From the NCBI GenBank assembly GCA_017537565.1, contig JAFYKQ010000118.1:69578-116365 (forward strand): a DNA stretch of 46,788 nucleotides. The letters run 5' to 3'. Position numbers and translations under genes: made by a program. Source of the stretch: Flavobacteriales bacterium (GTDB lineage: Bacteria > Bacteroidota > Bacteroidia > Flavobacteriales > UBA1820). Every line of letters begins with the position of its first letter. Position 1 is the stretch's first letter. The notes beneath the pieces are model-generated. The model made no database searches and was not told where the DNA came from. It saw only the letters and a list, made by a program, of their open reading frames with translations. Of this stretch, positions 21,994 through 23,775 are shown piece by piece.

Positions 21994-22689
21994 ATGATAA
22001 AACAGATACTTGATTTTCTTTCGGCACTAGATAAGAACAACGACCGGGATTGGTTTTTGACACACAAAGGCGAATACCTACGAGCCAAAGAAGCATTTGA
22101 AGAACTAGTGGCTAGGCTTATCCCCATAGTCCAAGAGATAGACCCTACGGTAGGACATCTAGAGGTAAAAGACTGCACATACCGCATATACCGCGACGTG
22201 CGTTTTTCTCACGACAAACGCCCATACAAGACTCATATGGGAGCATACATCAACCGCCGTGGCAAAAAGAGCCCCTATGCTGGCTATTACATTCACCTAG
22301 ACCCCACACACGGTTCGCTATGGGGAGGTGGTCTTTACTGTCCCGATGCCGCCCTTCTCAAGGCCGTACGATGGGACATATATGACAACATAGACGAATT
22401 TTTGGATTTGAATAATTCTTTGGAAAGAGAAGGTTTTACACTTTCTAGGGAAGACATGTTGAAAAAAACACCACAAGGATTCCCAAAGGATTTCCCATAT
22501 AGTGATTTCCTTAAAATGAAACACTATGATATGTATCGCACTATAACAGATGATGTTTTATATGACGAAAATCGCCTCATAGAAGAAACACGCCGTGCTT
22601 TTGCTGCGATGAAAAATATGAACCGTTTTCTCAACTACACGATAGACGAGACTCTTCCAAATATAAATCGTATGGACAGTTATAGATAA
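21994..22689 (+). CDS. DUF2461 family protein
   Basis: NNDRDWF, RIYRDVRFSHDKRPYK, GYYIH and GGG motifs. Confidence 0.9.
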   Translation: MIKQILDFLSALDKNNDRDWFLTHKGEYLRAKEAFEELVARLIPIVQEIDPTVGHLEVKDCTYRIYRDVRFSHDKRPYKTHMGAYINRRGKKSPYAGYYIHLDPTHGSLWGGGLYCPDAALLKAVRWDIYDNIDEFLDLNNSLEREGFTLSREDMLKKTPQGFPKDFPYSDFLKMKHYDMYRTITDDVLYDENRLIEETRRAFAAMKNMNRFLNYTIDETLPNINRMDSYR

Positions 22690-22808
22690 AATATATACAA
22701 GAGTAGAAAGATAAAAACACCTCACACTCTTTCTGGATATAGAAAATTTTATAATTTTGTAAAAACACAAAAAAAAATTCATTTGCCTATGAAACACCGC
22801 GTATAGAC

Positions 22809-23019
22809 AGATACGCATATTTTAGACATATTGGAAAAGCGTTTTAGCTTTATTCTGCATTCCCAGAAGTTTGGCGACTATATAGGAAAATCTGCAAGAA
22901 TATAGCATAAATGCTCACGTTATAGGCGTGGGCTTTTGGTTATTCTGCAGATTTAGGTTACGCCAAACACCTTGGGAAGCGAGTACACTGAAAGTGCCAC
23001 GCTTTTTTTATGCGTATCT
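22809..23019 (+). ncRNA. Candidate structured leader RNA / ncRNA (nested inverted repeats)
   Basis: Nested pairs 22809-19/23009-19, 22835-41/23000-06, 22860-65/22973-78, 22869-76/22961-68, 22888-96/22946-54, 22898-902/22941-45, 22913-19/22927-33. Confidence 0.6.
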
Positions 23020-23093
23020 ATAACATAAATCCAGGCACACATGGAGTAACCGAAATGCCACAAAGTGAGTAGGAAATTTCAACAACAAAAAAA

Positions 23094-23660
23094 ATGAAAA
23101 GAATTTTATTAATTACCATTACTATATTATCGACACTCTATAGTCCAAGTGTCCTCTCACAAAATCTTTCAGCCTACGGAGTTACGTTAGGCGAAGACAA
23201 GTATGATGTTGAAAACGTATTAGAAAACAAAGGGAAGAGCATCAAATATGATACAAATAAAAAAGGAAATGCTGTATTAAGAATTTCCTATCCACGCATT
23301 GGAGATGCGGATTTTGATAATGGAACATTCGTATTTAACGATGATGACGAATTATACTCGATAAGTTTTAGTTCTGTCGATGGTGGCACAGGAAATCCAG
23401 GAATGCCCTGGGAAGCCAAGTTTCATAGAAAAGCTGAAGAATGCAAAAATGCTTTTCTAAAAATGGCTCAAAATTTATTAACTAAATATGGCTCCCCCGA
23501 TACTTACTCAAACACCAGTGCAATATGGCAAAAAGGAAATGAAAGAATCTCTTTAGAATATGATTATAAATATGAATATAATCAGTTTGGTTGGGTAGAT
23601 CATCACGTGAGTGTCTTACTCAAATACGAACAGATAGATTTAGACAATGCGGATTATTAA
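23094..23660 (+). CDS. Hypothetical secreted protein (AT-rich islet)
   Basis: 188-aa ORF with Sec signal peptide ending VLS-Q; no family recognised. Confidence 0.8.
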   Translation: MKRILLITITILSTLYSPSVLSQNLSAYGVTLGEDKYDVENVLENKGKSIKYDTNKKGNAVLRISYPRIGDADFDNGTFVFNDDDELYSISFSSVDGGTGNPGMPWEAKFHRKAEECKNAFLKMAQNLLTKYGSPDTYSNTSAIWQKGNERISLEYDYKYEYNQFGWVDHHVSVLLKYEQIDLDNADY

Positions 23661-23775
23661 ATAATCACTATATTGGTAAAATACACTCTTTGACAAGAAG
23701 AATCCTTGGAATAAATAAACAAACATTAAACACATTTAACATATAAGTAATAAACACAATAAATATAATTATCAT

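Follow-up and report, generated by a model that had tools for sequence, protein, structure and literature searches.

The rod-like element and its location

The window analysed here is a stretch of 46,788 nucleotides (nt) from the genome of a Flavobacteriales bacterium (assembly GCA_017537565.1, contig JAFYKQ010000118.1, positions 69,578 to 116,365, forward strand). Between a DUF2461 gene and a gene coding for a protein of 188 amino acids (aa), both on the same strand, this window contains a series of nested inverted repeats, described in the original prediction, made from the letters alone, as a hairpin element with switchable pairings. This rod belongs to a family of structured RNAs, ~170-245 nt long, that is found across the Bacteroidota, and the region 22752-23093 is best explained as the promoter and the 5' leader of the gene for the 188-aa predicted secreted protein.

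Every helix and repeat proposed was present at its coordinates by direct reading of the sequence, and a repeat search of the window recovered most of them independently. The outer arms AGATACGCATA and TATGCGTATCT, complementary at 11 of 11 positions, came out of both approaches. The repeat search also gave the pairing of AAATCTGCA (22888-96) with TGCAGATTT (22946-54), that of AAAAGCGT with ACGCTTTT and a direct repeat, TTATTCTGCA, with copies at 22850-59 and 22940-49. Direct reading placed TGCAAGAATA at 22893-902 and GCGTGG at 22926-31; a side hairpin CAC-TGAAA-GTG is found at 22986-96, and CCACGC (22997-23002) is followed by seven T residues at 23003-09 (the U-run of the RNA). Folding of 22790-23090 with RNAfold produced a single long rod of -88.4 kcal/mol, while 100 dinucleotide shuffles of the same region had a mean of -62.2 kcal/mol (standard deviation 4.8, z -5.49) and none of them folded as well. 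The rod fold of the window is more than chance. The nested-hairpin architecture is thus real: its coordinates were all right, it folds better than 100 of 100 shuffles and it recurs with compensatory changes in the two sets of 70 and 80 homologues described below.

Distribution of the RNA family

Covariance models were needed to follow this RNA, because BLAST alone found only one further full copy (plus fragments of a third) in the window's genome and one more copy in its relatives. The consensus rod obtained from these four sequences had a compensatory change in 22 of 69 pairs. One model (R1) was built from the four sequences and another (R2) was rebuilt from 46. The 1.71-Mb genome of the window contains seven copies according to R1 and eight according to R2. 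In the genus there were 28 R1 matches, distributed in eight of nine genomes, and in a sample of the order R1 matched in 27 of 151 genomes. R2 matched in 23 of the 151 genomes of a phylum sample, including other orders and other classes. In addition, a strict sequence pattern scanned over named genomes gave at least 120 stretches, 80 of which were retrieved for analysis, and all 80 were full-length R2 matches. The best of these, in a metagenome-assembled genome (MAG) of a Prevotellaceae bacterium, scored 174.6 bits, and the window's own copy 173. Among the matches listed, the hosts included Flavobacterium, Chryseobacterium, Kordia, Tenacibaculum, Mucilaginibacter, Pedobacter, Ferruginibacter, Siphonobacter and an Ignavibacteria MAG and, within the Bacteroidales, Prevotellaceae, Rikenellaceae, Alistipes, Odoribacter, Tannerella, Paludibacter and Dysgonomonas. 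The number of copies per genome was low (1-8).

The rod in the window matched nothing in Rfam 15 at E up to 10, and 20 homologous loci gave no gathering-level match; riboswitch families in particular were without a match in the window and in these 20 loci. Apparently, this is among the most widespread structured RNAs of the Bacteroidota absent from Rfam 15, and in gut as well as environmental species it precedes genes for outer-membrane transporters and for proteins that are secreted or exposed at the surface. The secondary-structure model, backed by covariation, allows its annotation in thousands of genomes.

Some copies deserve separate mention. In the window's own genome the copy closest to that of the window (L025:1255-1428, on contig 66) precedes a 58-aa zinc-ribbon peptide with four cysteines and not a secreted protein. 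In a genome from another order two copies are found in tandem on one strand, 48 nt apart (L083:1232-1452 and L083:1501-1699, with 44.9 and 101.3 bits).

Covariation and strand of the structure

In the alignment of 70 homologues 86.4% of the model structure was paired, against 64.8% when the partners were shuffled, and the covariation score was 0.506 against 0.186, a value that none of 500 shuffles reached. Slid controls of the same alignment, with the partners moved by 1-3 columns, scored only 0.076-0.094. The second set, of 80 loci, behaved similarly, with 86.9% against 67.1% paired and a covariation score of 0.444 against 0.154. Fitting these alignments to the model favours it, and the permutation figures overstate the significance because genomes that are related do not count as independent. 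The slid controls keep the relatedness and still collapse. Homologues with compensatory changes, on which the original prediction had made itself depend, are therefore available in numbers (70 and 80 sequences).

The best supported part of the structure corresponds to helices 7 and 8 of the model (TTCCCA/TGGGAA and GTTTGGCG/CGCCAAAC in the window), which were 98.8-99.4% paired, most positions showing four pair types, and the internal-loop sequences around them were strongly conserved. The apical hairpin (helix 12) was paired in 97% and helix 3 (segment A, that is AAAAGCGT, with ACGCTTTT) in 86.6%. The outer stem (helix 1) was 75% paired, and single positions showed as many as six pair types.

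The paired cells contained 588 G-U combinations and only 110 A-C, and the reverse strand of one copy scored 24 bits against 210 on the forward strand. The excess of G-U and the strand specificity of the model indicate that the structure is formed by RNA read in the direction of the downstream gene. Together with a -7 box of its own and an end at a U-run, the G-U excess shows a strand-specific structured RNA, in agreement with the transcribed RNA already put forward from the sequence.

Competing folds

An unbiased scan of all pairs of alignment columns recovered the helices of the rod and, besides them, two pairings that are incompatible with it. The 3' arm of the apical hairpin was complementary to the segment that precedes the U-run (columns 260-266 with 362-368) in 95% of the cases, with eight extra pair types. 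This helix covaries: CGCGGG is found with CCGCG, GGGTGG with CCACCC and, in a shifted register, GGACGC with GCGTCC. The same scan paired the strand at the 5' base of the rod (AAGCGT) with the 5' arm of the apical hairpin. There are thus four segments, the 5' base strand (A), the two arms of the apical hairpin (B and C) and the segment before the U-run (D), which pair either as A:D plus B:C or as A:B plus C:D, the two arrangements being mutually exclusive.

The alternative pairings were evaluated by the mean longest complementary run, with the partners permuted among copies (300 permutations each). The 5' copy of the repeat with the middle segment gave 7.54 against 6.14 permuted (maximum 6.63, z ~9), the 3' copy with its alternative partner 6.94 against 6.10 (maximum 6.47, z 5.8), the apical 3' arm with the pre-U-run segment 7.24 against 6.64 (maximum 6.90) and A with B 5.40 against 4.74 (maximum 5.00, z 7.4), so that all four exceeded every one of their permutations. 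The upper rod pairing, between the middle segment and the 3' copy, was stronger still (8.7-8.8 against ~6, z ~18-20). Both switchable pairings of the original prediction, that of the TTATTCTGCA repeats with TGCAAGAATA and that of GCGTGG with CCACGC, are therefore conserved across the family. Conserved and mutually exclusive pairing of this kind, found here by the column scan and by the permutation tests, is expected of an attenuator.

Folding of the isolated halves pointed in the same direction. Alone, 22832-22921 folded by pairing the 5' copy with the middle segment (-22.6 kcal/mol), and 22922-23009 formed one hairpin that abuts the U7 run (-28.7 kcal/mol; none of 200 shuffles folded as well). 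A stable hairpin directly before a U-run is the arrangement of a terminator, and 22922-23009 ends precisely at the T7. The pattern CNRYG followed by at least four T was present in 40 of 70 copies. Family means of the folding energy were -19.1 and -29.7 kcal/mol for the two halves and -61.8 kcal/mol for the whole RNA. From these models, the RNA can form either one rod or two tandem hairpins with mutually complementary loops. The features of the window copy are collected in Table 1.

Table 1 Features of the window copy of the RNA, its promoter and the gene that follows
Feature	Position	Strand	Partner or evidence
-7 promoter box TAATTTTG (TAnnTTTG)	22752..22759	+	direct reading; such a box in 57/70 copies
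GCCTATG motif with mini-ORF (ATG 22789-91, MKHRV, TAG 22804-06)	22785..22806	+	recurrence in copies
small 5' hairpin GCGTAT/ATACGC	22799..22816	+	3' arm shared with the 5' arm of the outer stem
outer stem, 5' arm	22809..22819	+	partner 23009-23019, 3' of the U-run; model helix 1
segment A, AAAAGCGT	22835..22842	+	rod-closing partner ACGCTTTT (22999-23006); alternative partner, apical hairpin 5' arm
5' copy, GCTTTATTCTGCA	22845..22859	+	able to pair with the middle segment 22888-22902; permutation test
5' strands TTCCCA and GTTTGGCG	22860..22876	+	partners CGCCAAAC (22961-68) and TGGGAA (22973-78); helices 7/8
middle segment AAATCTGCAAGAATA	22888..22902	+	rod: paired with the 3' copy; two hairpins: paired with the 5' copy
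apical hairpin GCTCACG-TTATAG-GCGTGGGC	22913..22933	+	3' arm also complementary to CCACGC before the U-run
3' copy, TTATTCTGCAGATTT	22940..22954	+	repeat search, covariation, permutation test
GTGCCACGC then T7, predicted terminator-like end	22994..23009	+	isolated folding
outer stem, 3' arm	23009..23019	+	exists only in RNA going past the U-run
small hairpin TCCA[GGCACACA]TGGA	23030..23045	+	loop GGCAC (23034-38) complementary to GTGCC (22994-98)
DUF805b-like motif (Rfam RF02914), sub-threshold	23041..23075	+	20 bits, cut-off 35.6
gene that follows, 188 aa, N-terminus resembling a signal peptide, no Pfam family	23094..23660	+	

Promoter, downstream genes and structure beyond the U-run

Of 70 copies, 57 had a Bacteroidota -7 box (TAnnTTTG) between -80 and +45 relative to the model start; among control windows 64 of 1220 had one (5.2%). 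In the window transcription is predicted to start a few bases 3' of the box, at ~22765-22770. All 28 copies of the genus were followed by an open reading frame (ORF) of at least 40 aa on the same strand, which begins with ATG at -8 to +72 nt from the end of the match, a count made with no control and including three ORFs that are short and doubtful. In the 23 genus copies whose U-run could be scored and whose ORF had at least 60 aa, no TAnnTTTG box appeared between the U-run and the start codon (0/23), and 16 of these 23 ORFs had a signal-peptide-like N-terminus by a crude rule. The products encoded behind the genus copies are unrelated according to Pfam and include proteins of no family, LRR and Big_2 lipoproteins, a GmrSD-type enzyme and the zinc-ribbon peptide. 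The suggestion that the element recurs before unrelated accessory genes is borne out by these 28 same-strand ORFs and their diverse Pfam content, with the same reservation about the control.

The conserved pairing does not finish at the U-run, since the outer stem encloses it. Furthermore, 26 of 53 copies contained, 20-60 nt further on, a complement to the CC-ending 6-mer that precedes the U-run; 1000 permutations gave 8.9 such copies on average and 16 at most. This signal was clear only after restricting the search to +20..+60 and to the CC-ending 6-mer; an unrestricted search of a 9-mer against the 108 nt downstream was barely above permutation (6.35 against 5.91). The downstream complement was often located in the loop of a small hairpin, as is the GGCAC of the window.

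At the 5' end, a GCYTATG motif followed by an ORF of only 2-5 codons was present in 12 of the 28 genus copies; L089 and L105, which come from a different family of the class, have it as well. From a rough estimate based on base composition, about one in four mini-ORFs would be that short by chance. The arms of the small 5' hairpin that shares one strand with the outer stem vary among copies and stay complementary (GCAC/GTGC, GCGCAT/GTGCGC, GCATCG/CGATGC).

Some copies directly follow genes for recombinases or transposases: Phage_integrase in L044, L052 and L126, Resolvase in L060 and L079 and an IS1595 transposase in L066 and L080. This is consistent with carriage on mobile or invertible DNA, and these copies fit the portable module of the original proposal. 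The setting recalls a family of six small RNAs (sRNAs) of B. thetaiotaomicron mentioned as 'adjacent to transposases/invertases' in PMC11697453, the one paper that a literature search for them gave. In Flavobacteriaceae- and Chryseobacterium-type loci (L068, L077, L072, L069/L074/L075) the 180-480 nt between the RNA and a TonB receptor gene contained, by eye, further blocks conserved among species, which had no match in Rfam. These blocks, located 5' of the receptor gene, may be a second element.

Hints of expression

Public runs labelled as bovine gut metatranscriptome contain small shares (0.05-0.11) of the sequence words of this DNA. Over the region 22400-23700 (1301 bases) the contigs from these RNA libraries covered only 22796-23059. 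Three were nearly identical to the window (22860-23037 with no differences, 22838-23002 with one and 22852-23005 with three), and the others were diverged paralogues with depths of up to 43. Such contigs cannot show ends, strand or level, RNA libraries may contain DNA and the uncovered parts are not evidence of silence. We take them as a weak hint of an abundant short RNA produced from the element.

Apparent relationship with the hth-associated ncRNA

Hoffmann et al. (Nature 2026, PMC13472631) describe an abundant 'hth-associated' non-coding RNA (ncRNA) in Bacteroidota, which has a divergent hth gene on one side and susCD, two-component or rpoE-dcas12f operons on the other. According to that report the target of the dCas12f guide RNA overlaps the 5' edge of the ncRNA, on the same strand, and dCas12f-sigmaE initiates transcription 45-48 bp from the target-adjacent motif (TAM). 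The role of the ncRNA is named there as an open question, a role as negative regulator is proposed and the authors' model of the ncRNA is built only from dCas12f loci.

Homologues found here are located in exactly these surroundings. Of 40 remote copies, 12 are followed after 183-480 nt by a TonB receptor gene (CarbopepD_reg_2 plus Plug), and small divergent helix-turn-helix (HTH) ORFs were found upstream of remote copies. The 80 loci of the pattern scan included 18 with an HTH ORF, always divergent and mostly 72-130 nt away, 17 with a TonB receptor 95-560 nt downstream and ten with both. One locus in a Saonia MAG (L159) has the order hth, RNA and Sigma70_r2, with the rpoE side ending at the end of the contig. 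Two of the homologue-linked HTH ORFs resemble, by eye only, an HTH sequence given in the supplement of PMC13472631. R2 matched the hth- and TonB-linked loci over the full length with 65-128 bits, which makes the family homologous to RNAs in the defining hth context. The hosts also overlap (Chryseobacterium, Mucilaginibacter, Flavobacteriaceae), and the homologues share the place next to an hth gene of opposite orientation and, on their own strand, ahead of a TonB/SusC-type receptor gene or, at one locus, an rpoE-like gene.

The window copy is different. Its upstream neighbour is the same-strand DUF2461 gene and not a divergent hth, its downstream gene is not susCD, a TonB receptor, two-component or rpoE-dcas12f but that of a small secreted protein, and the Pfam analysis of neighbours revealed no HTH gene beside any genus copy. 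The Cas12f/TnpB domains PF07282 and PF01385 had no match in the window's 97%-complete genome, with a detector that is unreliable; in five Chryseobacterium genomes PF07282 gave only weak zinc-ribbon hits in ORFs of ~175 aa and no convincing dCas12f.

The RNA family appears to be related to the hth-associated ncRNA, beside which it is set by genomic context and homology. The novelty is reduced accordingly, because the Flavobacteriia homologues occupy the exact context described in PMC13472631: the family has apparently been in print since 2025-26, in the available passages with no structure-function analysis and only within dCas12f loci. What is new here is the spread of the RNA over the phylum, much broader than dCas12f or hth loci; the hth-free copies with no detected Cas12f-like gene, multiplied before secreted-protein genes in a small gut genome; and the conserved bistable architecture with conserved structure 3' of the U-run. 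The structure model, the competing folds, the selection past the U-run and the breadth of the family turn the open role of the ncRNA into defined questions for mutation and end mapping.

Comparison with other RNAs

The architecture is reminiscent of an attenuator of the trp-leader type, with four pairing segments, the last of them (D) followed by a U-run and, in some copies, a tiny upstream ORF. However, both folds of the present RNA put a helix against the U-run, so that there is no clear antiterminated state, the mini-ORF has 2-5 codons without a run of regulatory codons and the structured part is far larger (~170 nt).

With 6S RNA and 6S-Flavo the family shares a rod-like shape, a length of ~180-200 nt and conserved internal loops, but it is multi-copy (7-8) and its predicted fold lacks the large central bubble. 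This identity was rejected: RF00013 and RF01685 do not match the RNA, and 6S-Flavo is located at other loci in three RNA-bearing genomes. In the window's 97%-complete genome both models gave nothing at E up to 1; for 6S-Flavo, three genomes of this order, all of them larger, gave matches below threshold.

The FopS/GibS sRNAs of Bacteroides (PMC11697453) are likewise paralogous multi-copy RNAs of Bacteroidota with canonical promoters. FopS RNAs are described there as ~65-70 nt long, consisting of a single-stranded seed and a terminator, and as deposited in Rfam. Size and architecture exclude this identity, and Rfam, where FopS was deposited, gave no match. The analogy with the C4 RNA of phage P1 that had been drawn originally was not sustained either, since both copies of TTATTCTGCA pair in cis within one RNA and a separate antisense partner was not seen.

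Possible function of the RNA

Our leaning, slightly beyond an even judgement, is that the RNA acts as a cis-acting transcriptional gate, a leader that terminates by default and permits conditional read-through into the gene behind it. The leader's own promoter would drive the RNA. By default a helix would abut the U-run and transcription would stop there, releasing a short stable RNA. Under some condition transcription would read through the U-run, and the longer RNA would form the outer stem and the GGCAC:GTGCC contact and carry the downstream gene. The analysis establishes the structure with its conservation and strand, the promoter box, the lack of a second -7 box, the competing folds, the pairing past the U-run and the genomic surroundings; termination, read-through and their control are inferred. 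In the attenuator or cis-regulatory RNA of the original prediction, the structure, the box, the U-run and the switchable pairings have stood, and a function in attenuation is presumed.

Several points weigh against such a gate. Apart from the limits of the alignments given above, the lower part of the rod, in which the 5' copy joins its rod partner, has weak support (z 2.2; 6.16 against 5.86 permuted). The GCYTATG motif with its putative mini-ORF is present in only 12 of the 28 genus copies. No sensing device was identified; riboswitch families gave no match, the mini-ORF has no run of regulatory codons and the internal loops are conserved. The contig 22860-23037 runs past the U-run, and the contigs in general have the limits already mentioned. 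In the E. coli experiments of PMC13472631 HTH and ncRNA are reported as dispensable for activation driven by dCas12f. To these must be added the distance of 95-560 nt to the next gene in the Flavobacteriia homologues and the abundance of the hth-associated ncRNA as a discrete species, both considered below, and the behaviour of truncated RNAs.

If the RNA stood alone and acted in trans, as a 6S-like or anti-sigma-like binder of protein or as a base-pairing sRNA, the downstream gene would be independent or incidental. The promoter box, the end at the U-run and the strongly conserved internal loops around helices 7 and 8 would all suit it, as would the distant next gene in Flavobacteriia and the fact that neither 6S model finds anything in the window's genome. 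An abundant discrete ncRNA with a proposed role as negative regulator (PMC13472631) also fits a role in trans, and the RNA-library contigs, which fall on the element and not on the flanking genes, point weakly the same way. We nevertheless regard this alternative as rather unlikely. Pairing past the U-run, both in the outer stem and in the downstream complement (26/53 against 8.9), matters only for an RNA that reads through. Each of the 28 genus copies is followed within 72 nt by a same-strand ORF, the spacers lack a -7 box (0/23), and eight copies in one small genome, each before a different gene, would be unusual for a housekeeping RNA. The presence of 6S-Flavo at other loci in three genomes that hold the RNA argues in the same sense. 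The outer stem and the downstream contact, which form only in long transcripts, would also fit a constitutive structured 5' untranslated region that stabilises the mRNA or is processed to a stable fragment, with no regulated switching. The great stability of the rod, the contig that passes the U-run and the failure to find a trigger speak for it. A static rod, however, would not keep four competing pairings conserved beyond permutation, and the conserved GC helix with its U-run is hard to explain without termination, so that we consider this option improbable.

A DNA-level explanation, in which the RNA structure would be incidental to a DNA site or to a mobile palindromic repeat of the type of miniature inverted-repeat transposable elements (MITEs) or of ERIC sequences, is suggested by the multi-copy, imperfect palindrome of ~210 bp with terminal inverted repeats and by the copies next to integrase, resolvase or IS1595 genes. 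We give it hardly any credence, and identity with a MITE/ERIC-like repeat was rejected. The terminal arms covary rather than conserve their sequence, G-U outnumbers A-C by 588 to 110 with a model that is strand-specific, the copies bear a promoter box and, in all 28 genus cases, point the same way as the ORF behind them, and the family is spread over the phylum with a low copy number (1-8). A match to a MITE had been named originally as a reason to withdraw the claim of novelty, and the covarying arms, the strand preference and the co-orientation speak against it.

Returning to the transcriptional gate, a bolder version, which we consider doubtful, is that its terminating fold depends on the first ~45 nt of the RNA, that is, on segment A together with the 5' copy. 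RNAs made from the canonical promoter would fold as two hairpins and stop at the U-run, giving the abundant hth-associated ncRNA, while those starting inside the element would lack these segments, form the upper rod and read through. If true, this would explain the role of the ncRNA in RNA-guided transcription, where dCas12f-sigmaE starts 45-48 bp from a target at the 5' edge (PMC13472631), and gut Bacteroidota without dCas12f would have spread the same gate before many genes for surface or secreted proteins, under a different trigger. Equilibrium folding of 33 hth-type copies gave no support to a terminator that depends on the start site: the mean paired probability before the U-run was 0.46 in the full RNA and 0.49 with a start 46 nt in, with the position of the TAM guessed and folding at equilibrium and not co-transcriptional. 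The 5'-truncated RNA of the window also still forms the local hairpin before the U-run. The idea is therefore kept only as the bolder version.

The DUF805b-like motif

The last 35 nt of the leader, 23041-23075, align to all 35 positions of the Rfam model DUF805b (RF02914), including the GAGUAGG tail, in a 5' untranslated region near the start codon. The score of 20.0 bits (E 0.0013-0.013) is below the gathering threshold of 35.6 required for membership. A literature search for DUF805b found no paper on the motif itself. The leaders of the type 'TAACCGAAATG..AAAGTGAGTAG' that were mentioned in the original prediction turned out to be a different thing from the rod, namely a short motif like this one. 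It covers only the end of the leader and is separate and independently widespread: the hairpin with GAGUAGG was found in 85 of the 151 genomes of the order, in 49 of them above the cut-off, at loci other than those of the rod RNA, and it is multi-copy and placed ahead of many genes, a candidate for a general signal in 5' untranslated regions. By eye, it accompanies the rod RNA in two of the 28 genus copies, and the copy L025:1255-1428 that precedes the zinc-ribbon peptide also bears it.

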